NCBI GenBank assembly: GCA_963796455.1
Contig: CAWCLO010000003.1
Coordinates: 307,574-371,573 of the forward strand
DNA length: 64,000 nt
Direction: 5' to 3'
DNA from: Candidatus Sulfomarinibacteraceae bacterium
GTDB lineage: Bacteria > Acidobacteriota > Thermoanaerobaculia > Thermoanaerobaculales > Sulfomarinibacteraceae
Made by a program: the position numbers and the translations under genes. Of the stretch, positions 12,951 through 41,870 are shown in pieces. The notes beneath the pieces were generated by a model that did no database searches, was not told the DNA's origin, and saw nothing but the letters and a program-made list of their open reading frames with translations. Within the stretch, counting starts at the first letter, position 1. Every line of letters starts with the position of its first letter.

Positions 12951-12994
12951 GGGAGGCGACATTCGCATGAGCGCAGAATCAGTGCCGCGCATCT

Positions 12995-18925: not shown

Positions 18926-18937
18926 ATGGAATAATTG

Positions 18938-19232: not shown

Positions 19233-19290
19233 ATGTGGATGAAACAATTCACCACCCCCTCCGTGTTGACTGGTATGGAGGCACTCACCC

Positions 19291-20001: not shown

Positions 20002-20005
20002 GGGC

Positions 20006-20157
20006 ATTTCGGATTTCGGATTTCGGATTTCGGATTTTTCGGGCGGGCAACTTGTCCCCTCACAGAGAACATATTCGTTTTTGGTGTCGGAACCGCTCTC
20101 ACTATCGGGGGGAACCGAGACGTGACCGGCGTTCGATAGCGATCCCGATAGCGATTG
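20006..20157. repeat. (ATTTCGG)n heptamer array and GATAGC hexamers
   Basis: Four-plus tandem ATTTCGG at 20006-20037; GATAGCGATCCCGATAGCGAT at ~20135-20155. Confidence 0.8.
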
Positions 20158-22465: not shown

Positions 22466-22617
22466 TGCATCCTGCATCACTCTTGTCCAAGACAGGTTCT
22501 CGGCTAGCGATCAGGGGCGGCGACAGCGATCAGCGTCAGGGACAGGGAACAGCAATCAGTGTTCAGCGTCAGCGAACAGGAGTCAGCGTCACGTTAGACT
22601 GGCATGGGGCCCTGAAA

Positions 22618-22971
22618 TCAAGACTTCGGGTTGAGCAATCTCCAAGTCATTGCACGCACCTGATCAAAGGCCTTCATCGCGTCACTGGCTCTGTTCGGGC
22701 TGATCGCCCCGGCGTGAGCGAGAAGCTGCAAGTGGCTGTCGACCTCTTTCGCCGAGGCGTAGGCGATTCTCCAGGGGTTCGACCGGTCTCTACCGACTCG
22801 GCCGTGCCCTTCTGCCAGATTCGCAGGGACCGAACTTGCCGAACGGATCACCTGATCGGCTATCGACTTCAGAGGAGCTGGAACCCTCATCACGAGCTTG
22901 ATCGCGATTCCTGCGGCTTCGAGTGCTTTCGAGTGGGCAACGAGGTTGGTGTTCGTGGCGGCTTTGGACAT
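22618..22971 (-). CDS. Four helix bundle protein (23S rRNA IVP/Avd-like), copy 1
   Basis: DQVIRSASSVPANLAEGHGR...AYASAKEV motif; GGAGG RBS before ATG 22971. Confidence 0.9.
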   Translation of the reverse strand: MSKAATNTNLVAHSKALEAAGIAIKLVMRVPAPLKSIADQVIRSASSVPANLAEGHGRVGRDRSNPWRIAYASAKEVDSHLQLLAHAGAISPNRASDAMKAFDQVRAMTWRLLNPKS

Positions 22972-23109
22972 GGTCACCTCCGGGTCGTTCATGCCCCTAC
23001 CCACAAGCCGGTGTGGCGGCCGATGTCAAGGATGCCCTGCACCCTGCCTGTCCTTGACATCGGCCGCCCACCGGCTACCCCTTCCTTTGAACGACCCGGA
23101 GGTGGCCAT
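22970..23109 (-). promoter_or_regulatory. Conserved nested hairpin leader occluding RBS/ATG, copy 1
   Basis: Outer 21-nt stem, middle AGCCGGTG/CACCGGCT, inner GGCCGATGTCAAGGA/TCCTTGACATCGGCC. Confidence 0.75.
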
Positions 23110-23416
23110 TTCGCCACATGAACTCAAGACTGCTGCCGCTGCCCGCCGTCGCTGACCACTGACCGCTGTCCCTGTTCGCTGTTGCCTGTCGCTGCCAACT
23201 GTCGCTGCCGCTGTAATTCGGACGCGGACGCGGACACGGGCAGCCGCGAACCGGATATGCCAACAACCAACCCGTAAACCACGTGTTGTCAGGTGGGTAA
23301 CATCACGTGACAATCTGTTTTGGACAGCAGTGATCCTGCATCCTGCATCCAGCATCCAGCATCAAAAAACGCGGACCGAAGCCCGCGTTTTTCGAGGATT
23401 GAGGTCGTTCGATAAA

Positions 23417-23611
23417 CTAAAAAACGCCGGCCTCGGAGGTCGGCGATGTTTCGTAGGGCGGCTCCGCCTCGGTGGTAAGACTCACGATGGCCAGACCAAA
23501 TGCGAGGACCAGGGCCGCGGCAACGATCGGAATCAGGAACTGGGTCCAACCGGACCCGCTGTCCGTCCCACTTCCCAAACCGCCGGTAGCTTCCGCTTCG
23601 ATCTCGGTCAT
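23417..23611 (-). CDS. Small single-pass membrane protein
   Basis: AGGAGG upstream; one hydrophobic helix FLIPIVAAALVLAFGLAIVSL. Confidence 0.5.
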   Translation of the reverse strand: MTEIEAEATGGLGSGTDSGSGWTQFLIPIVAAALVLAFGLAIVSLTTEAEPPYETSPTSEAGVF

Positions 23612-23701
23612 TTCAGAGCCCCTTCCTCCTAAATATATGACGCCGCAGCCCCCTGAAAAGTTGCAGGCGGGCCGAAATTCGGCCCACCTGCGGCGAAAAA
23701 C

Positions 23702-24169
23702 CTATTTCGAAGCCATCTTGTACTCGGGGTGATTGGATTTCATGTGCTTGGCGATCCACTCGGCCTGCATATCCTTGGGGACATTCGAAAGGGTGGCATC
23801 GATCTTCATTTTGCCGCCCTGCCGCAGAACCACGTACTGGACTTCAGATCCCGGTTCGAGCTTTGAATAGACCTTTTTGAGCTCCGCCTTGTTGTCCTTC
23901 GAGTACTTGACGCCGTCCATGGCGAGCATGACGTCGCCCTTTTCAAAACCGGCTTTCTGGGCCGGGCTTTTGGCGACGACCTTGGAAACCACCCAACGCC
24001 CTTTCTCGTCGGTGTCGTATTCGATCCCGAGCCAGGCCTTCTCTGCGTACTTGGTCTTCATATACTTGGCGCAGTCTTCGGCGTTGCCATCACACTTCTT
24101 CTTGTCTCCGGCAACCGCCGGCACGGCGAAGATCGACACCACCAACAGAATCGCGAGCAGCTTCTTCAT
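23702..24169 (-). CDS. Secreted PDZ-domain protein
   Basis: Signal peptide MKKLLAILLVVSIFAVPAVA; WLGIEY, SPAQKAGFEKGDVMLAMDG. Confidence 0.9.
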   Translation of the reverse strand: MKKLLAILLVVSIFAVPAVAGDKKKCDGNAEDCAKYMKTKYAEKAWLGIEYDTDEKGRWVVSKVVAKSPAQKAGFEKGDVMLAMDGVKYSKDNKAELKKVYSKLEPGSEVQYVVLRQGGKMKIDATLSNVPKDMQAEWIAKHMKSNHPEYKMASK

Positions 24170-24446
24170 TCCCTGACCTCCCGGATTTGTGGATCGGCTA
24201 CCGGCGGCTGCAAACAGCGGCGCGGCATCCGATCCGGGTTGATGAGATCCGCAATCGTCGGTTCGATCGACGAACCGCGTCGTGGATGGGGTGGGTATCT
24301 GTTCGATCATGGCTACCAAGATGCTCCTGACAGATGTGAATGTCCTCACCTTTCCGTCAGAAGCTGTGAAAGGTGTTACCGAGTTGCAAAACCCCGCCAC
24401 GAAAGCCCGTCCGTGCGCTATATTGCAGGCTGAGAGGAGTTCACGA

Positions 24447-26129
24447 GTGTCCTTCTTCGAGAATCACAACGGACCCGGCAACGGAGTTTCAAACTCCGAA
24501 CTCAAGGCGGTCGAGCACAACGTGCTCGGCGGGCGCCGTGTGCTCTGGGCCGGAATTTTGGCGGTGCTGCTTCCCCTGACCATCCTGCTCGGGCTGCAAT
24601 ACCTGTGGCTCACCGATCTCGAACGCAATTCGGCCATCGCCCGCAAGGCGACGCTCAACAACTTCCTCGAGGCCATCACCAAGGACATCCACTACTACTA
24701 CTGGAAGATTTCCGAGCGCGCCCTCAACCTGCCGCCCGAGATCTTTGTTGAAAAAAAGATCGACTACGCGGCATCGTATTTCAAGAAAAAGGAGATCAAG
24801 GGCGCCAAGCGCTTCTTCGTCGTGAGCTACACGACCCGGGACGAGATCCTCTTTTACAACCCGAAGAAACAAAAAATGGAAGTGCCGGACCACTCCGATG
24901 AAACGCTCGCGGTGTGGGCGGCGGCGGCGCCATGGCGATATATGCGAAAAAAGAGCGCCAAGCTCGAAACCACCACTTTGAGCGCCGACTTTCACGATCC
25001 CAACAACAGGATCATTCTCCTTCCGATCACCGATGAGGACTCCAAGCTCGTGGGGTTGGCAGGATTCATCGTCGATCAGGAGTATTTCAAAAAGGTCGTG
25101 CTCCCCGAGGCCATCGAAAAATCTCTGCCCAAGTTCGAAGACGGCGAAAAGGTCAAGCTGCAGGTAATCGTTCGCGACAACCAGAGCCAGCAGGTCCTGC
25201 CCAGGGGCATCCCGACCAACCCGAAGAAAAACCTGACCAAACGTTCCTTTGCTTTTGTCTTCACCGATTGGACCATCAGCCTCCAGGGTGACTTTGCCTC
25301 GCCTGAAAAGTGGGCAAAAGCCAACTTCGCCTACAACATGACGCTCTCTGCAATTCTCGCTGCGGTGCTCCTCGGCGGCATCGCACTCACCGTCCGGACC
25401 GCGCTCCGCGAAATGAAGCTCTCAGCGATGAAGAACGAGTTTGTTTCGAACGTGTCGCACGAGCTCCGGACTCCCTTGTCGTCCATCCGGGTCTTTGGCG
25501 AGTTCATGCGCCGCGGCCGGGTCGAGGACCAGGCCAAGGTCCGGGAGTACGGTTCTTACATCGAAACCGAAAGCCGTCGCCTGACCCAGTTGATCAACAA
25601 TATTCTCGATTTCTCGCGCATCGAATCAGGTCGCAAGGTCTACACCTTCGAAGCAACCGATATCGAGGAGATTCTGGCCGGCACGCTCGCGACCTATACC
25701 ATCCGCCTTCGGGACAAGGGCTTCGAGGTCGAATACACCGGTCCCGACGAGCCGCTGCCCGAGATCTCGGTCGACGGGAACGCCATCGACCGCGCGGTCG
25801 CCAATCTACTCGACAACGCTGTGAAATACTCCAACGGCGACCGCTGGATCGGTGTCGAGCTCGCTTCAAGCGGCGACGAGGTGCTGATTTCGGTCGCCGA
25901 CCATGGAATCGGTATTCCTCGAGACGAGACCGAGAGAATCTTCGAACGCTTCCACCGCGTCAGCACCGGTCTCGTCCACGACGTCAAGGGGTCGGGGCTC
26001 GGTCTTTCGCTGGTCCGGCACATCGCCGAATCCCACGGCGGATCGGTGACCGTCGACAGCGTTGTGGGCGAGGGAAGCACGTTTACCATCCACCTGCCGA
26101 TTGAAGGCGCGACTGGAGAGGGCGCATGA
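24447..26129 (+). CDS. Membrane sensor histidine kinase
   Basis: Two TM helices; [35 protein letters not shown]; start GTG 24447 after GAGGAG (uncertain). Confidence 0.95.
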
Positions 26130-26809
26130 GCAAGGTCCTGGTTGTCGAAGACGACGAGGCGATGGCAGTCGCCCTCCGCGACGGCTTCACCTATGAAGGT
26201 CACGATGTGACCCTGGCGCGTGATGGCGAGGAGGGGCTGCGGCTCGCGCGTGAGGACGGGCCGGAGATCATGATCCTCGATGTCATGCTGCCGAAAATGA
26301 CCGGTCTCGAAGTCTGCAAGCTCCTCCGCGGCGAAGGTTCGAACCTACCGATCATCATGCTCACCGCGCGCGGCCAGGAAATCGACAAGGTCCTGGGGCT
26401 CAAACTCGGGGCGGACGATTATGTGACCAAGCCTTTCAGCTTCATGGAACTGATGGCCCGGGTCGAAGCCGTGTTGCGGCGCAGCAAACCCGGCGGTGGA
26501 TGCCAATCCGCAATCCACGAGTTCGGCGACCTCACCGTCAACCTCGAGTGTCACGAGGCCAGCAAGGCCGGTGAAGCCATCGCTCTCACACCCCGCGAGT
26601 TCCGGCTCCTCGGGTTCTTCCTCGCTCACCCCGGCGAGGTCGTGTCCCGCGAAGAGTTGTTGGATGCGGTGTGGGGATACGACACCATCCCATTCACCCG
26701 CACAGTCGACACTCACATCGCCAAGCTGCGCAAAAAAATCGAGGATGACCCGTCGGATCCGCAGCACATCATCACCGTGCATCGCCTGGGATATAAGTTC
26801 GTAGGCTGA
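26126..26809 (+). CDS. OmpR/PhoB-family response regulator
   Basis: [35 protein letters not shown]. Confidence 0.95.
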
Positions 26810-26965
26810 CCGGAAACCGCGTCCGCGTCCGCGTCCGTGCCCGAATTGCAGCGGCAGCGACAGTGTCCAGCGTCAGCGACAGGCAACAGCGTCAGGGATC
26901 AGCGGTCGGCGATCAAGGGCTGCGTTCAGTTTCCAGCGGCAGCGGTCAGGAGTACAGGCGGCGCA

Positions 26966-27105
26966 GTGGTCACCTCCGGGTCGTTCGACAGAAGGGGTAG
27001 CCGGTGGGCGGCCGATGTCAAGGACAGGCAGGGTGCAGGGCATCCTTGACATCGGCCACCACACCGGCTTTTGGGAATGGGCATGAACGACCCGGAGGTG
27101 ACCAT
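26966..27105 (+). promoter_or_regulatory. Conserved nested hairpin leader occluding RBS/ATG, copy 2
   Basis: 26966-26986 pairs with 27085-27105; 26999-27006 with 27062-27069; 27010-27024 with 27043-27057. Confidence 0.75.
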
Positions 27106-27457
27106 GTCCTCAGCCGCCACGAACACCGACCTCGTTGCCCACTCCAAAGCCCTCGAAGCAGCAGGCATCGCGATCAAGCTCGTGATGAGGGTTCCAGCTC
27201 CACTGAAGTCCATAGCCGATCAGGTAATCCGGTCGGCAAGTTCGGTCCCTGCGAATCTGGCAGAAGGGCACGGCCGAGTTGGTAGAGACCGGTTGAACCA
27301 CTGGAGAATCGCCTACGCCTCGGCGAAAGAGGTCGACAGCCACTTGAAGCTCCTCGTCCACGCTGGGGCGGTCAACCGGAATGGAGCCGGTGAAGCGATG
27401 AAGGCCTTCGATCAGGTCCGTGCCATGACCTGGCGGCTCTTGAATCCGAAGAATTGA
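27104..27457 (+). CDS. Four helix bundle protein, copy 2
   Basis: Same motif; 117 aa from ATG 27104. Confidence 0.9.
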   Translation: MSSAATNTDLVAHSKALEAAGIAIKLVMRVPAPLKSIADQVIRSASSVPANLAEGHGRVGRDRLNHWRIAYASAKEVDSHLKLLVHAGAVNRNGAGEAMKAFDQVRAMTWRLLNPKN

Positions 27458-27574
27458 GCGCTGTTCGCTGTCGCAGACTTCTGTTAGCTGACCCTGTCCG
27501 CTGTAGCTGTCACTGTCGCTGCCGCTGCCGCTGGACGCTGTCTGAGACCCTGTCTTGACCTCGAGCGACCGAAG

Positions 27575-27741
27575 ACGGAGAAACCGCAGATCACGCAGAT
27601 GAACGCAGAGAGTAGGGCAGGAACGTCGAGCGCCGTCTATTGAAGCTGGAGGGTCTCGAGCGTTTCGCGGAGCACGGGGCTCCGGCCATTGTGGTGCGGC
27701 CGTCCCGGCCGCACGGTGTGCAGGCGAGACGCCTGCACCAC
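27575..27741 (-). repeat. REP doublet (27691-27741) plus ATCTGCG module (27575-27609)
   Basis: Reverse-complement matches to 12510-12576 and 12653-12688. Confidence 0.8.
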
Positions 27742-27911
27742 AAACGCGATGTCCTCCCGAGCGGAGCCGCACAAGGGGCCGCGCAGTTGCACCCACTGGA
27801 CGGGACGTCTTGAGTCTGAATACTTTGCTTGAGTGGGTGGGGTTCGATTCCCGGCTTCCGGCTTCGTCTCCGACTACGCCGTGACAGGTCGCATCCGGCT
27901 ACGCCGCGGCA

Positions 27912-27943
27912 TTTTTTCATTCGGCTATTGCCGAACAAAAAAA
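27912..27943 (-). terminator. Putative terminator after tRNA-Glu
   Basis: TTCGGC-TATT-GCCGAA flanked by T and A runs. Confidence 0.5.
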
Positions 27944-28021
27944 TGGTGACCCCAACGGGATTTGAACCCGTGTTGCCGGCGTGAAAGGCCGGTGTCCTAG
28001 ACCTAGCTAGACGATGGGGTC
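27944..28021 (-). tRNA. tRNA-Glu (TTC)
   Basis: GACCCCATCGTCTAG...CCGGCCTTTCACGCCGG...GGTTCAAATCCCGTTGGGGTCACCA; anticodon TTC, encoded CCA. Confidence 0.97.
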
Positions 28022-28109
28022 ACTTTCGCAACCATGTGAACGGCTGTTCTGGCCGTCCGGGCGGGTATCCTACCGCAAAACTGCGCGTGGGAAAAGCCCA
28101 TGTCCAAAT

Positions 28110-28196
28110 TCGCTCTCGCAATCGGGATCGTCATCCGGCCCCGTTGACTGTCCGAGGTCATTCGATAGCGATACCGATTGCGAGAGCGATAGCGAT
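28110..28196. repeat. Inverted repeat built from GATAGC-type hexamers
   Basis: TCGCTCTCGCAATCGGGATCG (28110-28130) vs CGATACCGATTGCGAGAGCGA (28169-28189). Confidence 0.7.
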
Positions 28197-28204
28197 GCGG
28201 CTGT

Positions 28205-28963
28205 TCAGTACCACTCCAAAACCCGCACCTCGATCTCGGAATCGACCGACACAAGGCGTTTGAACTCATCGAGATCGCTCATCCCGCCTTTGCCGCGATA
28301 GTGGTAGGGGAAGACAACCTTTGGTTTGAAATCGAGCACCGCGTCGGCGGCGGGGCCGACATCCATGGTGTAAGGGAGGTTCATGCAGACAAAGGCGGCA
28401 TCGATGTCTTCGAGGGCCCGCATCTCCGGGATGTCCTCGGTGTCACCGGCAATGTAGATCCGCGCGCCATCAATCGTCAGCACATACCCGTTGCCCCGGC
28501 CTTTGGGGTGGAATCCCTGTTTTTCGGGATCGAGGTTGTACATAGGAACGGCTTCAATGATCACACCATGCCAGTCGAGAGACTCGCCATTGGCCATAGA
28601 CGCTAGAACTTCACGATCTCCGGCCGGAAAACGCTCCACTACCGCCGGCGGCGCGATGATCTTTGTTCCAGCAGCGGTCAACGCGGCTACGGTCTCGAGC
28701 GACAGGTGATCACCGTGGATATCGGTGATCAGGATCAGATCGACCGTTTGGATCGGCGCAAAGGCCTCCGCTCCACCCACCGGATCGACTGCCACCCGTT
28801 GCCCAGCCCACTCGAGGACAAAGGTCGCGTGCTCGATCGGGCGGATCGTTACCACTCCTCCGTCGGTCGCGATCTGGTTGTCTGCGGCCACCGCGTCCAG
28901 CACCTGCAGCGACAGAACCGTACACATCAAAAGGCCAACGATCGACGGAGTTTTCTTTGTCAC
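28205..28963 (-). CDS. Secreted MBL-fold metallo-hydrolase
   Basis: ITDIHGDH, IYIAGDTE, PYHY; signal peptide. Confidence 0.9.
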   Translation of the reverse strand: MTKKTPSIVGLLMCTVLSLQVLDAVAADNQIATDGGVVTIRPIEHATFVLEWAGQRVAVDPVGGAEAFAPIQTVDLILITDIHGDHLSLETVAALTAAGTKIIAPPAVVERFPAGDREVLASMANGESLDWHGVIIEAVPMYNLDPEKQGFHPKGRGNGYVLTIDGARIYIAGDTEDIPEMRALEDIDAAFVCMNLPYTMDVGPAADAVLDFKPKVVFPYHYRGKGGMSDLDEFKRLVSVDSEIEVRVLEWY

Positions 28964-29101
28964 TTTGCTCTCTCCTTTGAGAATGCGAGGATACCGTAAA
29001 CGCCCTTCGAAGGAGTTCGCTTTTGCGGTCGTTTCCTGAGATCATGGACTCGCTGGTTGCGATATCCTCGCGAGTGGTCCAAAACATTGAGAGGTAGGGT
29101 C

Positions 29102-29539
29102 ATGGACGATCGAAATCTCCTCGGCGATGCGCCGATCGGTAAACTCAGCGGCCACAAGATCCTCGTCGTCGACGACGATGAGGAAATCAGGGTCTTTTTG
29201 ACGACCCTCCTCTCGGACGAGGGCGCGGCGGTCTTCGAAGCCGCCGACGGCGATGAGGCGATCGAGAAGGCCGCAAGCACCAAGCCCGATCTGATCACCC
29301 TCGATCTTTCGATGCCCGGTAAAAACGGGATCGAAGCCTTTACCGAATTACGACAGAATTCCGATACCGAGGAGATCGCGATCTGTGTCATCACCGGCCA
29401 TCCCGAGTTCCGCTCCGTCATCTACGATCGACCGGTCGCCGCCCCTGAAGGCTTCATCAACAAGCCCTGTGATCCCGACCACGTGGTGGATACCCTTCGC
29501 CGCATCCTCCGAATGAAAAAGCGCAAACAGAGGGGCTGA
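29102..29539 (+). CDS. Single-domain response regulator (receiver)
   Basis: ILVVDDD, PDLITLDLSMPGKNG, FINKP. Confidence 0.9.
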   Translation: MDDRNLLGDAPIGKLSGHKILVVDDDEEIRVFLTTLLSDEGAAVFEAADGDEAIEKAASTKPDLITLDLSMPGKNGIEAFTELRQNSDTEEIAICVITGHPEFRSVIYDRPVAAPEGFINKPCDPDHVVDTLRRILRMKKRKQRG

Positions 29540-29548
29540 GTCTCCGCG

Positions 29549-31102
29549 TCATTGCCACCGGTAGCCGACGATGAGACCGTTGAACTCGAGATCAAAATCG
29601 TTGTGGAGGTCGCTCGAATCAAAGATCCACTCCACCCGGCGATGGACCAGGGCGAGATCCCAACTGGTGGCAAATCGCCAGCGAAAACCGAGCGCCCAAT
29701 CAAAATAACGTTTCGATGAGATTGGCGATCCGTCGGCCTCGGCATAAAACACCATGCTCGAGGACGGCCTCACACCGAAGTGGACATGAAGCACCGGGGC
29801 CACCCGCAGGCCTTCGGCCCGAGAGCTTTTTCCGGGCGTACCGGCAGAGTCCTCCTGGACCGTGATTTCAAGGCGTTCGGCAAGCAGATCGACCCCGGCG
29901 CCCGCCTTGAGAGATAGTGCTCGGGTCTCGAGCAATCGATAACGCCACCGGGTTCTCCAGTCATAACCCACGAACTGGGTATCAAGGACCTCGCTGGGCT
30001 CAAAGGTCGCACCGGCGAAGTCGGTTTCGACCTGGAATTGTTCCTCCTCACGGACCTCGAAGGGAGCCAGACGGGTTGATATTTCGTGGCGGTCGCCGAT
30101 TCGCCGATCGATTTCGAGGTTTGCAGTCACGGCCGGGTTATTGCGCTCGCGGAAGCGAAAATCGATTTCGTCTCCAGCTTCGTCGGGCGCCACGACCTGG
30201 TTTTGGAGCACCGTCGATCGGCCGACCTCCCAGACGTACCGCCACCGCCACGGATCACTGGATTCCTGTGGCCGGGGCTCCGTAGTGGATGAACTGCCGG
30301 TTATCTTCAGCGACAGACCCAGTCCACGATCCACCAGCATCGGGTTCAGTGTCACCCGATCTTCGATCGGCGAGACAAAGGTCCAGCCGCTGATCAGGGC
30401 GATGCTCATCCCCGAGATCACATCGTCGAGATAGTGGCGCTCGGCACTGACCCTGCTGAGCCCGGTGAAGCTTGCCAGAACATAGGCCGGCACGCCCCAC
30501 CGCGGACCATAACGCCGATGGAGGAAGGAGGCACCCGAAAAGGCCGCCTGGGTGTGGGCCGAGGGGAAAGAGTCAAAGTCGGCGGCCGATGGCGTCCGTT
30601 TTTCAACCCCGTACTTGAGGCCATAGGTTGCGGCGGTGCCAACACCGAACTGGATGCCGTACTGCATAGCCCCAGGACCGTCGCCGGCGATCCAGGTCGC
30701 GCCCAGGGCCGAGCCCGGCAACAGGTATTGCAGGAGATCGCCGAGTTTTTCCTCGTCGTCCGCCGATCCCGTATTGAGGATCACGACGCCGCCGGCCGCA
30801 AAGACCCCTGTCAGAATCCAGCTCGTCGTCGTCATCCCGCCCACCACCCGCCGCCGCCGTTTTTCCAATCCGGTAGCGGGAGGTTCTGCAGCCGGAGCAG
30901 GGGCTTGTTGAAGATCCAACATTACCGGGGCGGCAGTCGGCCGAATCGGAATCAGGACGGTTGATTCGAGCCCGAGAGAAAAGCCGGGCTCAACCGGTTC
31001 TCCATCATCCCCATCGGCTCCGCCGGCCATCGCGACGAGCGTGAGCGCCGCGACAATCCCCACGCGAAACCACCATCGGGCCGAAAGAGGCGATCGATCC
31101 AC
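29549..31102 (-). CDS. PAP2-family phosphatase fused to a C-terminal putative outer-membrane beta-barrel
   Basis: K..VEKRTP, SFPSAH, SRV...RHYLDDV; C-terminal alternating strands ending IVGYRWQ. Confidence 0.8.
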   Translation of the reverse strand: MDRSPLSARWWFRVGIVAALTLVAMAGGADGDDGEPVEPGFSLGLESTVLIPIRPTAAPVMLDLQQAPAPAAEPPATGLEKRRRRVVGGMTTTSWILTGVFAAGGVVILNTGSADDEEKLGDLLQYLLPGSALGATWIAGDGPGAMQYGIQFGVGTAATYGLKYGVEKRTPSAADFDSFPSAHTQAAFSGASFLHRRYGPRWGVPAYVLASFTGLSRVSAERHYLDDVISGMSIALISGWTFVSPIEDRVTLNPMLVDRGLGLSLKITGSSSTTEPRPQESSDPWRWRYVWEVGRSTVLQNQVVAPDEAGDEIDFRFRERNNPAVTANLEIDRRIGDRHEISTRLAPFEVREEEQFQVETDFAGATFEPSEVLDTQFVGYDWRTRWRYRLLETRALSLKAGAGVDLLAERLEITVQEDSAGTPGKSSRAEGLRVAPVLHVHFGVRPSSSMVFYAEADGSPISSKRYFDWALGFRWRFATSWDLALVHRRVEWIFDSSDLHNDFDLEFNGLIVGYRWQ

Positions 31103-31138
31103 TCATACCAGCCTACCGCCGCCCAGGTGGACTGCAAA

Positions 31139-31933: not shown

Positions 31934-32049
31934 GAACCATTCCCCCAATCCTGCCGATTCCAGGACAAGATTATAGGGGGGCCGCAGCAATTTTGCGGGC
32001 GTAAAAACCTACTTTGTCGCGATACCGCAATGCTCGATGAAGTTTGAGC

Positions 32050-33443: not shown

Positions 33444-33553
33444 TCGAGAAACTGCATCCACTTTCGATTGTAACGGTGAGCTCTCGGCGATCACGCCAAC
33501 GGGAGCAGACGCGCCTTGACTCGGAGCGACCGGATTGAGGAGAATGCCGGGTC

Positions 33554-34699: not shown

Positions 34700-34702
34700 G
34701 CC

Positions 34703-37700
34703 ATGTTCAGCCGCTTTTTTATCTACCGTCCGATCTTTGCATCGGTCATTGCGATCGTCATCGTGCTTGTGGGCGGGCTTTCAATCCCGCTCCTGCCGAT
34801 CGAAAGCATGCCCGCCATCACGCCGCCGTCGGTGCAGGTTTCGACCTCCTACCCCGGTGCCGGAGCCGGCGTGGTGGCGGAGAGCGTGACCGCCCCGATG
34901 GAAGAGAAGATCAATGGCGTCGAGAACATGCTCTACATGTCGTCGAAATCGGCCTCCGACGGTTCCTGCAACATCACCATCACCTTCGAGGTCGGCACGG
35001 ATGTGGACATGGCCACTGTCCTGGTCCAGAACCGGGTCAACGAGGCCACGCCCGTGCTCCCCGAGGAAGTTAAACGCCAGGGCGTCAAGGTCGAAAAACA
35101 GTCGACCAACATCACCCTCATGATCAACATGTTGTCGCCCGACGGCACCTTTGACGACCTCTATATCTCCAACTACACCACCACCCGAATCAAGGACGTG
35201 CTGGCGCGAATCAACGGCGTTTCCAAGGTCGAGGTCTTCGGCGCCAAGGACTTCGGAATGCGGGTGTGGATCAACCCCGACCGGCTGCGCGCGCGCGGCC
35301 TCACGACCATGGATCTCACCAACGCCCTGCGTGAACAAAACGTTCAGGTGGCCGCGGGACAGATCGGCGGCCAGCCGGCGCCAAAAGATCAGCCCTTCGA
35401 GTACTCGATCTCCACCCTCGGCCGGCTGCAGACCGTGGAACAGTTCGAAAATATCATCGTCAAACGCGGTGAGCAGGGGCAGCTCGTGCGGGTTCGCGAC
35501 GTGGCCCGCGTCGAACTCGGCGCCCAGAGCTACAAGTGGTTCGCAAAATTGGACGGAGCGCCGTCGATCGCAGTTGCGGTCTACCCTGCACCCGGAGCCA
35601 ACGCCCTCAACGTGGCCGAAGGCATCAAGGCCGAAATGGACCGACTCCGGAAAGACTTCCCCGAGGGCCTCGAGGCCCGCATCCTCTACGACACCACCGA
35701 GTACATTCTGCAATCGCTCAAAGAGGTCGTGACCACTCTGATCATCGCCATCCTGCTGGTGATCTTCACGGTCTACATCTTCCTCCAGGACTTCCGCACC
35801 ACACTGGTCCCGGCGGTCACCATACCGGTTTCCCTGCTCGGCACCTTTGCGGTCATGCTCGCCCTCGGTCTGTCCATCAACGGGCTCACCATGTTCGGGT
35901 TGATTCTGGTGATCGGCATCGTCGTCGACGACGCCATCGTGGTGGTGGAAAACACCATGCGCATCATCGACACCGAGGGCCTCGATGCGAAGGCAGCCAC
36001 CGCGAAATCGATGCTCGAGATCACCGGTCCGGTGGTCGCGACGACCCTGGTGCTGTTGGCGGTCTTTGTCCCCACCATCGTCATGCCAGGTATCACCGGC
36101 CGGCTTTACCGGCCGTTCGCGATTACCATCTCGGTGGCGACTCTCTTTTCATCGCTCAACGCGCTGACTCTCAGCCCGGCGCTGTGTGGCATGCTCCTGC
36201 GGCCCTCGGTGGAACGCAAAAAGGGGTTCTTCGGGCTCTTCAACCGGATATTGGACACGGGCACCACCCGCTACGGATCAATCGTCAAATTGCTGCTCCG
36301 CCGCTCGGTCTTCACAGCAATCATCGTCGGTGGGCTCCTGGTGGCCACGTACTTCGGAATGATCGCCATGCCCGCCGGTTTCGTCCCCTCCGAGGACGAA
36401 GGCTACTTCATGGTTGCGGCACAGCTTCCCGACGCGACCTCCCTCGGGCGAACCGAAGAAGTCCTCGACGAGATCTCAGCCATCCTCGATGAGACCGAAG
36501 GCATCCGCGGCGTCATCGCGGTCGGTGGCTATTCATTGCTCGATACGGTCGTGTCGCCAAACGCGGGCGCCTTCTGGGTAGTGCTCGATCACTGGGACGA
36601 ACGATCCACTCCGGAGACCCAGATCCAGGCCATGGTCGATAGCCTGAACCGCCGTTTCTCTCAGGTTCAGGGAGCGGTGGTCTTCGCCACCCGGCCGCCA
36701 CCGATCCAAGGCCTGGGTGCCACCGGCGGATTCCAGATGGAGCTTCAGGATGTCGGCGGATCCGGCCTCGAGCTCTTGCAGCAGGTAGCCAATGACCTCG
36801 TGGAGCAGGGTCGTGAGAGCCCGGTTCTCACGAGCATGAACACGACTTTCCGGGCCGGCGTGCCGCAGCTCTTCCTCGAGGTCGACCGCGAAAAGGCCAA
36901 GCGTCTCGACGTGCCCCTTTCGGTCATCTTCGACACGCTCCAGGCCAACCTCGGATCGGCCTATGTCAACGACTTCAATATTTTCGGCCGGGTCTGGAAG
37001 GTCATGATTCAGGCCGACGAGCCCTACCGGATCGAACGAGCCGACATCACCAAACTCCAGGTTCGCTCCAACTCGGGCAGAATGGTCCCGTTGGCGACCC
37101 TGGTCGACGTTCAGGACACCGTCGGCCCAACAGTTCAAGCCCGCTACAACCTCTACTCCTCGGCATCGATCACCGGAGATGCCGCCGCCGGCTTCAGCTC
37201 CGGTCAGTCGATCGCGACGATGGAGGAGATCGCCCGCAATTCGATGCCGCCCTCGATGAGCTTCGAGTGGACCGGGGTGACCTACCAGCAACTCGCCGCC
37301 GGTGGCGCTGCCGGGTTCATCTTTGCGCTGGCCATCGTTTTTGTTTATCTCTTCCTGGCCGCCCAGTACGAAAGTTGGACCCTGCCCTTCGGCATCATCT
37401 TTTCGGTTCCCATCGCGATCCTGGGTGCGTCCATCCTGACCCTGGCTCGAGGTCTCGACAACAACGTCTACACCCAGATCGGATTCGTTCTGCTGATCGG
37501 TCTCTCGGCCAAGAACGCGATCCTCATCGTCGAGTTTGCCAACCAACTTCGGCAGAGTGGGAAAACCGCCTTCGAAGCGGCTCGGGAAGCTTCAAGGCTC
37601 CGATTCCGGCCGATTCTCATGACCGCATTGAGCTTCATCCTCGGCGTTCTGCCATTGCTCTTCGCCACAGGTGCCGGGGCTGCTAGCCGCGTCGCTCTCG

Positions 37701-37855
37701 GGACCGCGGTTTTTGGCGGGATGGCCTTTGCGACAGTCTTCGGCATCTTTGTCATTCCATGGCTCTACTTCGTGGTTCAGAGCCTGAGTGAAAAAATCGC
37801 CGGCACCAAGACACCCACAGATCCGGAACCGGCAGCCGCCGCCACCGAGAGCTGA
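34703..37855 (+). CDS. RND efflux permease (AcrB/HAE1 family)
   Basis: FFIYRPIFASVIAI, GIVVDDAIVVVEN, KNAILIVEFA, RFRPILMT. Confidence 0.97.
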   Translation: MFSRFFIYRPIFASVIAIVIVLVGGLSIPLLPIESMPAITPPSVQVSTSYPGAGAGVVAESVTAPMEEKINGVENMLYMSSKSASDGSCNITITFEVGTDVDMATVLVQNRVNEATPVLPEEVKRQGVKVEKQSTNITLMINMLSPDGTFDDLYISNYTTTRIKDVLARINGVSKVEVFGAKDFGMRVWINPDRLRARGLTTMDLTNALREQNVQVAAGQIGGQPAPKDQPFEYSISTLGRLQTVEQFENIIVKRGEQGQLVRVRDVARVELGAQSYKWFAKLDGAPSIAVAVYPAPGANALNVAEGIKAEMDRLRKDFPEGLEARILYDTTEYILQSLKEVVTTLIIAILLVIFTVYIFLQDFRTTLVPAVTIPVSLLGTFAVMLALGLSINGLTMFGLILVIGIVVDDAIVVVENTMRIIDTEGLDAKAATAKSMLEITGPVVATTLVLLAVFVPTIVMPGITGRLYRPFAITISVATLFSSLNALTLSPALCGMLLRPSVERKKGFFGLFNRILDTGTTRYGSIVKLLLRRSVFTAIIVGGLLVATYFGMIAMPAGFVPSEDEGYFMVAAQLPDATSLGRTEEVLDEISAILDETEGIRGVIAVGGYSLLDTVVSPNAGAFWVVLDHWDERSTPETQIQAMVDSLNRRFSQVQGAVVFATRPPPIQGLGATGGFQMELQDVGGSGLELLQQVANDLVEQGRESPVLTSMNTTFRAGVPQLFLEVDREKAKRLDVPLSVIFDTLQANLGSAYVNDFNIFGRVWKVMIQADEPYRIERADITKLQVRSNSGRMVPLATLVDVQDTVGPTVQARYNLYSSASITGDAAAGFSSGQSIATMEEIARNSMPPSMSFEWTGVTYQQLAAGGAAGFIFALAIVFVYLFLAAQYESWTLPFGIIFSVPIAILGASILTLARGLDNNVYTQIGFVLLIGLSAKNAILIVEFANQLRQSGKTAFEAAREASRLRFRPILMTALSFILGVLPLLFATGAGAASRVALGTAVFGGMAFATVFGIFVIPWLYFVVQSLSEKIAGTKTPTDPEPAAAATES

Positions 37856-37865
37856 GGAACGAGCT

Positions 37866-39377
37866 ATGAAACGAACCCGCTTCATCCCGTTGATCGCCGT
37901 GGCCTTCGTCGTCGCATTGAGCGGCTGCACCGTCGGACCGGATTACGTACAGCCGGAAATCCCCTCGGTTCCGGACACCTGGAACAGCGCCGCCACCGAA
38001 GGTCTTGCCGACGGTCAGTCATCCTTGCAGGCCTGGTGGACGGTCTTTGACGACGAGGTCCTGACATCTCTGATCGAACGCGCACGACTGTCGAATCTGA
38101 CCCTTCGCGAAGCTGTCTGGCGCGTCGAGGAAGCTCGCGCGTTGCGCGGTGTCGTCGCCGGGGTGCAAAAACCCCAGGTCGGTCTGAGCGGCGATGCCAG
38201 CCGCAACGACCCCTCCAACAATGGTGCATTGGGCGCCGTTGCTCCGGAGGGAGGTTTTGAACCCTCAAATCAGTTCGGCCTCGGGGTCGGAGCGACCTGG
38301 GAAATTGATCTCTGGGGCCGCATCCGCCGCCAGGTCGAAGCTGCTGATGCCCAGGTCGACGCCTCGGTGGAGGACTATCGCGATGTCCTGGTGACCCTCT
38401 TTGCCGAAGTTGCCTTCAACTATGTCAACGTGAGGGAACAGCAGGAAAGGCTCCGTCTGGCGAAAGAAAATGTCAGCGGCCAGGAAGACACCCTCGAACT
38501 CACCAACGATCGCTATAGCGCCGGCCTGGTATCGGCACTCGATGTCGCCCAAGCCGAAAGCAATCTGGCCAACACGAGGTCGTTGATCCCCACTCTCGAG
38601 AAGGGCATCGCCCTGGCCTTGAACCGGCTTGCGGTGCTCCTGGCCACCAGCCCCGGATCGCTGGATGACGAGCTGGCTGACAAGGCCGCCATCCCCACCG
38701 AACCGGAAGCCGTAACTACCGGGCTGCCGGCCGATCTGCTGCGCCAACGTCCCGACATCCGTGCGGCCGAGCGCCTGTTGGCTGCCCAGACCGCCCGCAT
38801 CGGGGTCGCCACAGCCGATCTCTATCCCTCTTTTTCCCTCTCCGGTTTCCTGGGGCTGCAATCCACCTCGGCCGGGGACCTCTTCAGTTCGGATAGCGTC
38901 AACTGGTCCATCGGTCTGCCCGTTCGCTGGAAGCTTTTTGCCGGTGGCGCCGTCCGATCACAGATTGCGGCCGAGGAAGCGCGAACCGAACAGCTTCTGG
39001 CAAACTATGAACGGGCAGTGCTCCTCGCCCTCGAAGAGGTGGAGGATGCCATGGTCTCGTATGAAAAAGAGGTGGTTCGAAGGGCCCATCTATTTGATTC
39101 GGTGGATGCGACCCAACGCTCCCTCGATCTGGTCTTGACCCAATACAGGGCGGGTCTGACGAATTTCCAGAACGTCCTCGACACCCAGCGCTCTCTGCTG
39201 CTTCGCCAGGACGATATGGCAGCCAGCGAGGGAATCGTCATCAAAAACCTCGTCGACCTCTACCGTGCCCTCGGTGGCGGCTGGGATCCGGAGACAGCGC
39301 AATCGCCGGCATTACCCGCTCCGTCCATTCCGCCGGGCGAGTCGGCATCGTCGGAATCAGAGGTCGCGACGCGATAG
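37866..39377 (+). CDS. Outer-membrane efflux lipoprotein (NodT/OprM family)
   Basis: LSGCTVGPDY, WEIDLWGR, LLRQRPDIRAAE, LYRALGGGW. Confidence 0.95.
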   Translation: MKRTRFIPLIAVAFVVALSGCTVGPDYVQPEIPSVPDTWNSAATEGLADGQSSLQAWWTVFDDEVLTSLIERARLSNLTLREAVWRVEEARALRGVVAGVQKPQVGLSGDASRNDPSNNGALGAVAPEGGFEPSNQFGLGVGATWEIDLWGRIRRQVEAADAQVDASVEDYRDVLVTLFAEVAFNYVNVREQQERLRLAKENVSGQEDTLELTNDRYSAGLVSALDVAQAESNLANTRSLIPTLEKGIALALNRLAVLLATSPGSLDDELADKAAIPTEPEAVTTGLPADLLRQRPDIRAAERLLAAQTARIGVATADLYPSFSLSGFLGLQSTSAGDLFSSDSVNWSIGLPVRWKLFAGGAVRSQIAAEEARTEQLLANYERAVLLALEEVEDAMVSYEKEVVRRAHLFDSVDATQRSLDLVLTQYRAGLTNFQNVLDTQRSLLLRQDDMAASEGIVIKNLVDLYRALGGGWDPETAQSPALPAPSIPPGESASSESEVATR

Positions 39378-39440
39378 CAGGAGCAACACACAGCCATCCG
39401 ACCCACCACGGGAGCCGGAGCGCACGAACCAGGAGGTGAT

Positions 39441-41369
39441 ATGGCGGTCGGCAACCTGGGAGTATTCGTCGGACCTGATCTCGATCTGTCGGACCAATTG
39501 CGGTGGGCCGTTCGCCTGGCCGAGGCCCGCAATCTGGACATCGTGGTGTTCCAACGGATCGAAGGCAGTGAGCGGCAAACAGTCAACGTGCCCCTGGACG
39601 GATCCGCCGAAGGCGAGGCCGCAGTGGCGGCAGGCGAGGTCTTCCAGGCCATCGAATCCATGCCCATTCTTCGTGCGGGACCTCGACCTGAAACGGCGGA
39701 AGATGAAGCCTTAGATGACGATGACTCGGTCATCCACGTCCAGTTGAAACTGATCCGCTGCGCCAACCTCCCATCTCTCAGGGAGCTGCTCCTGGCCGAG
39801 GTTCGCAAATCCAAACTCAAGCTCTTCACCGTGGTGCGCAAGGACCTCGGGGGCACCGGCAGCGAGATCACCAGGGAGCGTCGTCAGTTCCTCCGACACG
39901 TTCCGTGCGAGGTGGTCCATTGCAGCGGCTTCAACGAGGACAACGATCTATCTCGGATCCTGGTCACCGTCGCTTCGGGGCCCCATGCAGCGTCGGCATT
40001 GAAAATCGGTCGGGATCTCGCTTCTTCGTCCGGCGCCACCTTGACCGCCCTCCGCGTCAACCCTTCAATCGGCCCCGATGCCGAACAGGTCGGCGCCCGG
40101 CGCCTCGACATTCTGATCAAAAAGTCCCTTGGAAAAGACGAGGGCGAAGTTCTTCGGCGAGTGGTGGTGGACGATCAGATCCCCCGCGGTGTTCGCCGGG
40201 TTTGGGATGAGGGGAACTTCGACCTCGTGATCACCGGTGCGTCGCGGGTCGGTATGCTGGGAAGCCGGGTCGAGGGCAGCATCGGCGCCCGGCTTGCCAG
40301 GGATGAATCCGGGCCCACGGTCGCCGTCGTCAGTTCCGCTTCGCCGGTAAGAAATCGATTTCTCGCCGTGCTGGAAGGGGCGATCGAGCGGCTGGTGCCG
40401 CAGATCGATCGCGAGGACAGGGTGGTACTGGTCGAACGGGTGCAGTCGAGTTCCCATTCGAATTTCGACTTTTTTGCCCTGATGGTTCTTTCCACCTGCA
40501 TCGCCGCCATCGGTCTGATTCAGAACTCGGCCGCCGTCGTCATCGGCGCCATGCTGGTAGCTCCCCTCATGACGCCGCTGCTCGGTCTGGGTCTCGCCCT
40601 GGTCCAGGGCAATCCCGTCCTGGCTCGAATCTCCGTACGCTCGGTCGGTTTCGGTGTCGTGGTCGCGCTCCTGGTTGGATTGACGGTCGGTTTCCTGACC
40701 CCCGGCTTCGAAGAACCGACCCGTGAAATGCTCGGACGCGGCGGACCCAGCGTGCTCGATCTTTTTGTCGCCTTCGCCTCCGGGCTGGCCGCCGCCTATG
40801 CCTCCTCGAGGCCCGGTCTCCTCGCCGCACTTCCTGGGGTCGCCATCGCGGCCGCCCTGGTTCCGCCGATCGCCACCTCCGGTCTGGCCCTGTCTCTCGG
40901 TAACCTGGATCTGGCCTTCAATGCCCTTCTGCTCTTTGTCATCAACATGGTCACAATCGTCCTGGCGACCGTGGTCAGCCTCTGGTTTGTCGGTCTGCGC
41001 AATATCAAGAAAACCTCGCGCTGGGCGGTTCGAGTGGGCGGCGCGGTCCTCCTTGCAGTGTTGGCGCTTGGCGTCTATCTGAGTATCAAACCCACTCCGA
41101 TCCCCACCGCGGCAGGTCTCCCGACCGATTTCATGGAAGACATCCAGCGCCGGCTCGGTGACGACTATCGCCTCGAGGGAATCGGGGTCGCGTATGACGA
41201 GCTCGGCGTGCAACTCAATGTTCGGGTCGTCGGTAAAACGTTTGCGCCTGAGAACGTGGCGAACGAAGTCCGTGCGGCAGCGCGCGAACATTTCGACAAA
41301 CCGGTGAGGGTCCGAATGCTCACCCAGGTGGATGCCGAAGCGGAGGCCTTTGGATCCCAGCTCGACTGA
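39441..41369 (+). CDS. DUF389 membrane protein with N-terminal USP-like domains
   Basis: NSAAVVIGAMLVAPLM, LPGVAIAAALVPP; N-terminal RILVTVASGPHA, DLVITGA. Confidence 0.85.
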   Translation: MAVGNLGVFVGPDLDLSDQLRWAVRLAEARNLDIVVFQRIEGSERQTVNVPLDGSAEGEAAVAAGEVFQAIESMPILRAGPRPETAEDEALDDDDSVIHVQLKLIRCANLPSLRELLLAEVRKSKLKLFTVVRKDLGGTGSEITRERRQFLRHVPCEVVHCSGFNEDNDLSRILVTVASGPHAASALKIGRDLASSSGATLTALRVNPSIGPDAEQVGARRLDILIKKSLGKDEGEVLRRVVVDDQIPRGVRRVWDEGNFDLVITGASRVGMLGSRVEGSIGARLARDESGPTVAVVSSASPVRNRFLAVLEGAIERLVPQIDREDRVVLVERVQSSSHSNFDFFALMVLSTCIAAIGLIQNSAAVVIGAMLVAPLMTPLLGLGLALVQGNPVLARISVRSVGFGVVVALLVGLTVGFLTPGFEEPTREMLGRGGPSVLDLFVAFASGLAAAYASSRPGLLAALPGVAIAAALVPPIATSGLALSLGNLDLAFNALLLFVINMVTIVLATVVSLWFVGLRNIKKTSRWAVRVGGAVLLAVLALGVYLSIKPTPIPTAAGLPTDFMEDIQRRLGDDYRLEGIGVAYDELGVQLNVRVVGKTFAPENVANEVRAAAREHFDKPVRVRMLTQVDAEAEAFGSQLD

Positions 41370-41378
41370 GAACAGCAC

Positions 41379-41732
41379 TCACTTCGTCGGGTGCAACAGT
41401 CGCCAGGTCATGGCACGGACCTGATCGAAAACCTTCATCGCTTCACTGGCTCCGTTTCGGCTGATCGCCCCGGCGTGGGCGAGGAGCTGCAAGTGGCTGT
41501 CGACCTCTTTCGCCGAAGCGTATGCGATTCTCCAGTGGTTCAACCGGTCTCTACCGAATCGGCCATGCCCTTCCGCCAGGTTCGCCGGGACTGAACTGGC
41601 CGACCGGATCGCCTGATCGGCTATCGACTTCAGAGGAGCTGGAACCCTCATCACAAGCTTGATCGCGATCCCTGCTGCTTCGAGGGCTTTGGAGTGGGCA
41701 ACGAGGTTGGTGTTCGTGGCGGCGTTGGACAT
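41379..41732 (-). CDS. Four helix bundle protein, copy 3
   Basis: Same motif; ATG 41732. Confidence 0.9.
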   Translation of the reverse strand: MSNAATNTNLVAHSKALEAAGIAIKLVMRVPAPLKSIADQAIRSASSVPANLAEGHGRFGRDRLNHWRIAYASAKEVDSHLQLLAHAGAISRNGASEAMKVFDQVRAMTWRLLHPTK

Positions 41733-41870
41733 GGTCACCTCCGGGTCGTTCATGTCCATTCCCACAAGCCGGTGTGGCGGCCGATGTCAAGGATGCCCTG
41801 CACCCTGCCTGTCCTTGACATCGGCCGCCCACCGGCTACTCCTTCCGTTGAACGACCCGGAGGTGGCCAC
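41731..41870 (-). promoter_or_regulatory. Conserved nested hairpin leader, copy 3
   Basis: 41731-41751 pairs with 41850-41870; identical 48-nt core. Confidence 0.75.

Follow-up and report, generated by a model that had tools for sequence, protein, structure and literature searches.

The repeated genes found in this stretch of DNA (the window, 64,000 nucleotides in full) appear to be part of an IS4-derived mobile insertion cassette, in which arms, a leader hairpin and a gene of the 23S-IVS type lie between IS4Sa-like ends, a reading to which we assign a rough probability of 0.72. A complete copy measures about 850 bp and is flanked by target duplications of 9 bp; its terminal inverted repeats, each of 16 bp, enclose a passenger gene and no transposase. 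The cutting and pasting would have been carried out by a cognate DDE transposase supplied in trans, which we consider likely. This picture agrees with the original prediction that the element proliferates, lacks a transposase of its own and, with its structured and conserved leader, is mobilised in trans.

Three copies in the window

Three open reading frames of 117 aa, with start codons at 22971 (-), 27104 (+) and 41732 (-), encode proteins that differ pairwise at 13, 12 and 13 positions, matching the 12-13 differences first reported. In an HMM search all three exceed the cut-offs of TIGR02436 and PF05635, the families first named. The common leader was recovered as two inverted-repeat matches, 524 and 538 nt long and 90-91% identical, and contains a (GTCCGY)n run, a CAGCGR arm and a nested hairpin; mirror arms of GCTG words are present 3' of the gene in copies 1 and 2, as had been described. 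The copies are intergenic and, again as predicted, each adjoins the 3' end of an unrelated host gene (acyl-CoA dehydrogenase, response regulator/tRNA and DUF389). Copy 1 is bounded by terminal inverted repeats and an exact target duplication of 9 bp. In copy 2 the left IS end is missing and the right one degenerate, and copy 3, which has neither IS end, stops about 10 bp past its own stop codon. Gene-less sister elements are also found in the window, and the one that shares an array with copy 1 has a REP-like doublet (22246-22298) in the place of the gene, degenerate ends and a duplication of 8/9. With regard to the subterminal stretch of copy 1, shuffled sequences scored as high against IS4 in 12 of 1000 and in 6 of 2000 cases, the latter figure being the best among many loci compared.

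Table 1. Positions of the cassette copies, their parts and related elements in the window
Feature	Position	Strand
Copy 1, complete 855-bp cassette with IS4-type terminal inverted repeats	22478..23332	-
Copy 1, left terminal repeat CACTGCTGTCCAAAAC, sequence shared exactly with the 3' end of L107, L108 and L118 (autonomous IS4 elements)	23317..23332	-
Copy 1, subterminal stretch with weak similarity to the 3' end region of IS4	23241..23316	-
Copy 1, left arm: (GTCCGC)n run, GAATT, mosaic CAGCGR words	23110..23240	-
Copy 1, leader hairpin	22969..23109	-
Copy 1, four-helix-bundle gene, 117 aa, TIGR02436/PF05635	22618..22971	-
Copy 1, right arm: mirror GCTG words, complementary to left arm	22494..22617	-
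Copy 1, right terminal repeat CACTCTTGTCCAAGAC	22478..22493	+
Copy 1, target duplication ATCCTGCAT, first copy, within heptamer array	22469..22477	+
Copy 1, target duplication ATCCTGCAT (23333-23341), then (CWGCATC)n heptamer array	23333..23363	+
Gene-less sister element in the same array as copy 1, with the same arms and leader 5' half	22091..22461	-
Copy 2: arms, leader and gene, between response-regulator stop and tRNA gene	26815..27560	+
Copy 2, leader hairpin	26966..27106	+
Copy 2, four-helix-bundle gene	27104..27457	+
REP-like doublet plus the tail of a sister element without a gene, facing copy 2 tail to tail	27675..27743	-
Copy 3: left arm, leader and gene; right arm cut at DUF389 stop codon	41370..42012	-
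Copy 3, leader hairpin	41730..41870	-
Copy 3, four-helix-bundle gene	41379..41732	-
Gene-less, interrupted REP-cargo derivative with degenerate IS4-type ends	12353..12766	+

Insertion footprint and the candidate transposase

A genome-wide count in the analysed assembly (G000, completeness 90.5%) yielded 63 full copies, 57 of them with an intact 117-aa TIGR02436/PF05635 gene. The repeated element first proposed is real, but it is larger than described, its IS ends, target duplications, gene-less sister elements and many further copies having been missed. End-like motifs number 253, with 85 on contig C1 against 4 in a shuffled C1. Of the 69 facing end pairs, 20 have an exact 9-bp duplication and 35 a duplication of at least 8/9, compared with a mean of 2.5 and a maximum of 7 exact duplications under shuffled pairing; a scan of duplication lengths from 3 to 14 revealed an excess at 9 bp and at no other length. 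Insertions lie mostly in heptamer arrays, and the symmetric target ATSCWGSAT matches the arrays of G000. Exact duplications outside the arrays were found at L062, L071 and C4:224392, and these sites, together with the length scan, rule out a target duplication of 2 or 5 bp. Both ends are kept in only 30 of the 63 full copies (the left in 41, the right in 44).

Derivatives that are gene-less or deleted number about 83, of which 57 have REP cargo and 26 are internally deleted. The REP-cargo copies bear the same IS4 ends as the gene-bearing ones, and the record of duplications of at least 8/9 is similar in gene-less and gene-bearing copies (22/38 vs 13/27). Since the gene-less derivatives are as numerous as the gene-bearing ones, the protein does not seem to be needed in cis for transposition, and the combination of RNA and protein that had been put forward as the basis of mobility is not upheld. 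In truncated copies the left arm is retained and the loss is internal, with 7 matches beginning at one microhomology, and a retro-type 5' truncation was rejected on these grounds. Where the junction is complete in a congener, the site of copy 2 is empty (9 of 9 congeners), and IVP is absent from 11 of 11 syntenic regions; orthologous sites in these congeners lack the element. No same-species empty site was found in JGI metagenomes, nor did four sequencing runs contain a joint cleanly removing a copy; read depth over the genes in these runs was tens of times that of the flanks, a ratio that does not amount to a copy number.

Intact elements encoding an IS4-family transposase have these same ends elsewhere, one congener included, with exact 9-bp duplications at two of the three elements whose end is identical to that of copy 1 (L107 and L108). 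The transposase of the third, L118, scores 251 bits on NF033592, and a matching end is present in 69 of 80 metagenomic relatives of the L118-type transposase. Of 36 metagenomic IS4 elements in which both ends are present, only 7 have an exact duplication; such elements lie on short contigs of multicopy IS, which may be chimeric. IS4Sa ends are given as CA------T, with repeats of 8-10 bp, in Table 1 of PMC2266710. Because terminal repeats and 9-bp duplications are shared with IS4 elements, the sequence evidence indicates a mobile insertion cassette that is probably moved in trans by a DDE transposase, and not by a reverse transcriptase or HUH enzyme, with the protein as a passenger of IS4-end transposition. 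Where the original prediction settled on no mover, the ends and the duplication are those of an IS4-family DDE element.

The cognate IS4 transposase was not found in G000, nor in a second genome (G006), and was detected in only 1 of 24 congeners (G017); a four-helix-bundle gene as an IS4 passenger was seen at 0 of 80 loci. In G006, the 22 best-scoring copies, a biased sample, show a median ORF identity of 98% and exact duplications in 11. Other candidate movers were discarded, among them the PF01609 match of G006, which we read as IS1380-like and which has different ends, and that of G000, an ORF that we read as IS5-like with no matching end nearby. The association with a reverse transcriptase, raised in the original prediction, has no counterpart in G000, where RVT_1 gave no match, and this enzyme was rejected as the mover. 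No IS256 was present in 5 genomes and no ISL3 in G000, and a generic repeat-plus-duplication scan, a weak one in that near-perfect repeats were required, returned no transposase-size element.

The protein, the hairpin and the core in congeners

Structure comparison places the fold at a TM of about 0.8 to 2GSC and 2RLD and of 0.76 to bAvd (4DWL); the protein has a net charge of +7 to +8 and an identity to Avd of only 6-10%. In copy 1, the outer stem of the hairpin pairs across the GGAGG box and the ATG, and the inner stem covaries across the genus. The hairpin first noticed in the leader has a strong predicted fold in copy 2 (-110 kcal/mol for 26940-27125, z -9.2; whole copy, z -6.8), and the complementary arms enclose the gene in a long stem-loop. 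A promoter scan of copy 1 found no site driving the gene, and the tRNA alone passes in an Rfam search. The single 23S gene of G000 (C10:140644-143654) has no PF05635 match.

The dN/dS of the copies, a check suggested from the outset, is 0.14. Private nonsynonymous and synonymous changes stand at 49:28 in intact copies versus 43:4 in broken remnants (p 6e-4, and 0.005 under stricter filters), and private amino-acid changes are about 3-fold fewer in intact than in broken copies. The median identity among copies is only 89%, with codon-structured variation. Purifying selection still acts on both the protein and the hairpin, in resident copies too. The copies are recombinant mosaics in which linkage decays within 15-30 nt (p 0.001), a decay repeated in two other genomes, and short blocks are evidently exchanged among them by recombination; the recombination test fell short of significance in one set, of 28 near-identical copies (p 0.06). 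A reason for the selection can be offered tentatively, at somewhat below even odds: the gene may be weakly expressed under the control of the hairpin, which would bury the ribosome-binding site, its product may be a basic homopentameric nucleic-acid binder like Xcc0516 and Avd, and missense subunits would poison the shared pool, knock-outs being cost-free.

In other congeners the same core of arms, hairpin and gene is found between ISL3 ends with 8-bp duplications, and also without recognisable IS ends. ISL3 elements generate target duplications of 8 bp. Three PF01610 elements (L142, L138 and L145) have the GGYTCATCCGG ends that are shared with the ISL3-ended cassettes, whose 8-bp duplication is exact in 6 and at least 7/8 in 14 of 19; in another genome it is exact in 5 of 17. 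One genome, G004, has 45 matches, with IS4 or ISL3 ends in 0 of the 4 distinct copies inspected, and match counts within the genus range from 0 to 97. In the tree, the IS4-ended copies form one clade nested among the ISL3-ended ones, a position that rests on support values and a midpoint root, and this nesting suggests that the core is older than the IS4 ends. G000 also contains four unrelated IVP genes, each boxed by its own inverted repeat array.

Competing explanations and known systems

It seems unlikely that the core is itself the selfish element and that the IS ends are hitch-hiking add-ons captured more than once. The protein would then act on its own RNA or ssDNA, making intact copies better donors when repeat arrays and existing elements receive sequence by copying or gene conversion, in keeping with the occurrence of the core with IS4 ends, ISL3 ends or none, the high match count of G004 despite its missing ends, the purifying selection on shared and private variants, the fine mosaicism, the boxed IVP genes of G000 and the failure to find the cognate transposase where copy number peaks. 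New insertions with ends nevertheless show a DDE footprint, gene-less derivatives are just as numerous and have a similar duplication record, no reverse transcriptase was found in G000 and we know of no catalytic site in the four-helix-bundle fold. It is likewise doubtful that hairpin and gene constitute a self-promoting RNA-protein module with its own cis-acting route among short-repeat arrays, which would have repeatedly captured unrelated IS ends (IS4, ISL3) and of which the 23S IVS and the DGR Avd would be domesticated offshoots.

Selection at the level of the host could also keep the copies, through a dosage benefit that the protein gives to the host or, by way of addiction, to the cassette; the hairpin would then lock translation as the 5' UTR of a type I toxin-antitoxin system does. 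The conserved stem does hold the start codon and the GGAGG box and, by crude gene calls, for intact copies a tail-to-tail arrangement with the neighbour downstream occurs in 45 of 63 cases against about 49% expected, an excess that the REP-cargo copies do not share (27/57, by the same crude calls). We regard this as improbable, given the wide variation of match counts in one genus, the persistence of the knock-out derivatives and the little selection that a benefit in trans would be expected to exert on each of sixty redundant copies. A REPIN-like or retro-element, whose hairpin is acted on by a RAYT/HUH enzyme or a reverse transcriptase, might be suspected from the cargo, as its REP-like doublets match those around two Y1 genes, and from the resemblance of the protein to Avd. 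This is highly improbable, and for copies with ends it is largely refuted: a duplication fixed at 9 bp, together with terminal repeats, is the footprint of a DDE enzyme, the REP-cargo copies have the same IS4 ends, RVT_1 is missing from G000 and the truncations are internal rather than 5'. The assembly is incomplete, and an assembler that duplicated or shuffled repeats could in principle mimic such a family; the low identity and codon-structured variation of the copies, the target duplication proper to each, the same architecture and mosaicism in independent genomes and the existence of 4087 related protein clusters make such an artefact extremely improbable.

TIGR02436/PF05635 is a large family whose functional assignment is limited to DGRs, and the cassette offers a handle on it. 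One subfamily is now placed in a defined mobile unit with a probable IS4-type mover, about 83 natural knock-out controls and about 60 selected alleles, so that a role of the protein in the service of the element, in that of the host or as a poison can be put to a direct test. The cassette also ties together IVS-type genes, short tandem arrays and mobile insertion cassettes, all three poorly explained; a single passenger module uses ends from both of two unrelated IS families, and heptamer arrays serve as targets of the IS ends. The main texts of the open-access literature yielded no paper on four-helix-bundle genes inside IS ends, and both the twin with ISL3 ends and the selection acting on resident copies seem to be new.

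As for the IS4-derived cassette and its nearest known relatives, mobile insertion cassettes have IS ends without a transposase and are moved in trans by the cognate IS, according to the passages cited from PMC3129680, and those from PMC2266710 mention passenger genes in IS231 elements. The present cassette resembles MIC231-type cassettes and IS-derived MITEs in its IS ends and lack of a transposase, here of the IS4 family with 9-bp duplications. Unlike the MIC231 type, it carries a four-helix-bundle gene of the IVS type, accompanied by a hairpin and arms of its own, its intact copies are selected and recombining, its passenger also occurs on ISL3 ends and its cognate IS was not found in this assembly. 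One end is the same as in the IS4Sa-like subgroup (L118, L108, L107), the other is near-identical and the duplication is again 9 bp, whereas the transposase is lacking and the cassette gene is oriented opposite to it. The 23S rRNA IVS of Coxiella and Leptospira (S23p) similarly holds a PF05635 gene within a long stem-loop, with poor access for translation in the account given by the cited part of PMC4990558; the cassette, by contrast, lies outside 23S, is bounded by IS ends and target duplications, and holds an ORF that is conserved and not decaying. A basic four-helix bundle is shared with Avd, Xcc0516 (2GSC) and BT_0352 (2RLD), but the low identity to Avd and the lack of a reverse transcriptase, template repeat and target gene set the cassette apart from a DGR. 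Like REP/REPIN-RAYT systems, it consists of non-autonomous intergenic hairpin elements, from which it differs by its DDE footprint, its heptamer-array targets and REP doublets that are merely cargo. REP-targeting IS, as the cited part of PMC1525189 describes them, favour existing repeats as targets, as the cassette does.

An amplified cassette with a DDE footprint

The three four-helix-bundle genes of the window are genuine paralogs, as originally predicted: each encodes 117 aa from its ATG (pairwise differences 13, 12 and 13) and exceeds the TIGR02436 and PF05635 cut-offs in a profile search. The copies have 524-538 nt in common at ~90% identity, which bears out the non-coding leader that they were said to share. 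These genes belong to a real mobile cassette, 780-890 bp when complete, which starts with CACTGCTGTCCAAAAC and ends with GTCTTGGACAAGAGTG. With regard to its supposed proliferation, the source genome (G000; 5.02 Mb, 10 contigs, 90.5% complete) holds 63 full-length copies (57 intact, one with a late stop and five broken); the left end is retained in 41 of the 63, the right end in 44, and both ends in 30. The 9-mers flanking 69 facing end pairs are identical in 20 and differ by at most one mismatch in 35, where shuffled pairing gives a mean of 2.5 exact matches, and in the same pairs none of the other lengths between 3 and 14 is in excess. The symmetrised target, ATSCWGSAT, amounts to slightly more than one unit of the (GATGCWG)n arrays frequent in intergenic regions of G000; the duplication length of 9 is set by exact duplications at non-array sites. 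The available text of PMC4692102 reports no connection between its heptamer arrays and mobile elements.

The gene is dispensable for amplification. Among matches to the leader start, a REP-like doublet replaces it in 57 G000 copies and internal deletions mark 26, counts that leave out 88 further partial or unclassified G000 matches. This REP matches the ones surrounding two Y1 transposase genes. Seven remnant matches start at a CGGCCGA microhomology fusing leader to gene, which may reflect recurrent deletion or the spread of one event. Across 18 sampled congeners the cassette matches range from 0 to 53 per genome, and related loci appear in records titled Ca. Sulfomarinibacteraceae, Thermoanaerobaculia and Holophagae.

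The window copies do not occupy fixed orthologous positions in the congeners compared; the gene is found in none of 11 syntenic regions, including four with the copy-1 gene pair and three with the gene adjoining copy 3. The spacer of copy 2 is free of the cassette in all nine congeners with a complete junction (two more contigs end too early), each having its own, different small hairpin there. As the compared congeners are different species, the pre-insertion allele is not readable from them, and a search including JGI metagenomes found no same-species empty site. The surrounding response regulator-tRNA spacer (L019-L028 in congeners) is an insertion hot spot: nearly all congeners have their own, distinct small repeat in it.

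At the sequence level the cassette fits the definition of a mobile insertion cassette given in the available text of PMC3129680. Its layout is like that of ORF-bearing 23S intervening sequences, but the cassette does not lie in rRNA, and it is neither a DGR nor a REPIN. Searches of open-access text found no description of a four-helix-bundle cassette with IS ends.

Positions of the features discussed (window coordinates unless a contig, C, of G000 or a fetched locus, L, is named)
Feature	Position	Remark
Copy 1, complete cassette	22478-23332	target duplication ATCCTGCAT
Gene-less sister element	22091-22461	adjoins copy 1
Copies 2 and 3 (genes)	27104-27457 (+); 41379-41732 (-)	ends lost
Inner stem, copy 1 leader	23008-23075	TTGACA on both strands
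Response regulator-tRNA spacer	26809-27947	
CGGCCGA-start remnants, examples	C1:1000024; C1:1137369; C3:98136	
IS4 element L118	congener G017	transposase intact
IS4 element L108		transposase intact; exact target duplication
IS4 element L107		transposase frameshifted; exact target duplication
ISL3 and cassette, tail to tail	L142:948-3186	in G017
Single-copy PF05635 genes L098-L101	C4:1278094; C1:983149; C9:2726; C10:733004	
Gene-less inverted arrays	12990-13080; 18937-19240; 20003-20040; 28161-28197	
CTCAGGATGAC hairpins and CGCAGAT-type arrays	12822-12950; 12654-12688; 27575-27609	
9-mer plus GTG-GGTCCGCTG-like motif	C4:869249-872546	every 0.9-1.4 kb, between short ORFs

A probable cognate transposase and two kinds of IS ends

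The cognate IS family of the window-type cassette is IS4. Its exact end motif is present in 20 of the 401 genomes of the class, and the 20 places fetched comprise three elements of 1.3-1.4 kb with an IS4 transposase gene, eight gene-less elements of 280-410 bp and six at which the contig ended or the second end was not seen, the remainder being ambiguous. The L118 transposase scores 251 bits on NF033592, and the ends and duplication length fit subgroup IS4Sa, for which the available text of PMC2266710 gives ends CA------T and 8-10 bp repeats. Among 80 metagenomic relatives of this transposase a matching end was seen in 69 and both ends in 36, seven of them with an exact duplication; none of the 80 contains a four-helix-bundle gene. 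The transposase was found in only one of 24 congeners and not in G000 (at 90.5% completeness) or in the related genomes G006 and G034, the last of which has 45 exact IS4 end motifs. Gene-less elements with the same ends and other contents occur in G008, G032 and G034 (L113-L117, L174, L175), one set carrying REP-like hairpins. A 409-bp gene-less element with IS4 ends, a leader and an exact 9-bp duplication (L109, L110) lies directly upstream of a homologue of the window DUF389 gene in another genus.

All 22 sampled G006 copies (the best-scoring ones) have IS4 ends, 11 with an exact duplication. IS4-ended copies almost identical to the G006-type genes (L209, L249) lie on a contig titled Alphaproteobacteria, which may reflect horizontal transfer or mis-binning. 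Copies in G005, G008, G014, G016, G033 and G034 bear GGYTCATCCGGAATT ends in place of IS4 ends; 19 retain both, with an 8-bp duplication exact in six and matching at 7 or more of 8 positions in 14. In one further genome both GGYTCATCCGGAATT-type ends are found in 17 of 23 copies, with five exact duplications, some of them non-array. Autonomous ISL3 elements (L142, L138, L145) bear ends of this type. In midpoint-rooted gene trees, with recombination present among copies, the copies cluster largely by genome and the IS4-ended ones form one clade (99/98) nested within the ISL3-ended ones, so that the core of arms, hairpin and gene probably predates its IS4 ends. The L142 locus pairs an intact ISL3, in tail-to-tail orientation, with a cassette of the ISL3-ended type whose inner end is gone. 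Their outer ends might delimit a composite element, which would be a candidate intermediate of capture.

The idea of an element mobilised in trans stood, while its gene proved dispensable for amplification. We infer that the cassette was moved in trans by an IS4 transposase that has since been lost or is missing from the assembly. Mobilisation of a reverse-transcriptase type was abandoned, as no reverse transcriptase was found in G000 and the ends carry the footprint of a DDE enzyme. In the main rival, the four-helix-bundle gene would act in cis when one site is copied to another, a reading kept tenable by G004 and similar cases of high copy number without IS ends; neither IS4 nor ISL3 ends were seen in the examined copies of G003 (3), G004 (4 distinct) and G015 (1).

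Constraint on the protein and its leader

The 57 intact G000 genes have a median pairwise identity of 89%, and the dN/dS check proposed for them gave 0.14 (pN 0.047, pS 0.28). Intact copies carry 49 non-synonymous and 28 synonymous private changes, against 43 and 4 in 36 broken pieces, where 12.5 and 5.8 would be expected on matched sites; the two sets are therefore of similar synonymous age, with about threefold fewer amino-acid changes in the intact one (p near 0.005 under stricter filters). The predicted structure is a four-helix bundle (pLDDT 94.6), nearest to 2GSC and 2RLD (TM ~0.8) and then bAvd (0.76).

The leader forms a long nested hairpin (z -9.2 against shuffles, copy 2), which matches no Rfam family and in which the GGAGG box and start codon are paired within the outer stem. 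Three of its four stem strands vary at 0.013-0.033 and the outer 5' strand at 0.09, far below third codon positions (0.215). Across 27 genus leaders, related to each other and compared without a formal test, 14 of 45 predicted pairs changed on both sides, chiefly in the inner stem. TTGACA stands on both strands of the inner stem in every leader, with an invariant TAG directly outside it; a promoter scan found no complete promoter there. Some G006 copies (L054, L056, L062, L069-L072) have an alternative leader, in which the outer stem spanning the start codon is retained and the inner hairpin differs; many copies also have a REP-like hairpin of another kind inserted into their left arm.

Copies also recombine: variants form short blocks shuffled among them (r2 drops from 0.18 to 0.05 over 30 nt; p 0.001 by permutation), as in two other genomes (p 0.001 each), and linkage decay was not significant in one near-identical copy set (p 0.06). 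By crude gene calls, 45 of 63 intact copies are arranged tail to tail with the gene downstream, where ~49% would be expected, an excess absent from REP-cargo (27/57) and deleted copies (10/26). As to the constraint on protein and hairpin, our preferred reading is that the hairpin would keep expression of the gene low, and that missense subunits might be costly in a homopentamer, by analogy with Xcc0516, a pentamer according to the available text of PMC4990558.

Other repeats

Four unrelated single-copy PF05635 genes of G000 are each enclosed by inverted arrays of their own 6-8-nt repeat, and similar arrays without a gene occur in the window. The CTCAGGATGAC hairpins (244 motif matches) and CGCAGAT-type arrays (101 matches) constitute two further repeat families, presumably linked to GIY-YIG and GxxExxY genes. 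On C4, a 9-mer recurs together with the GTG-GGTCCGCTG-like motif.
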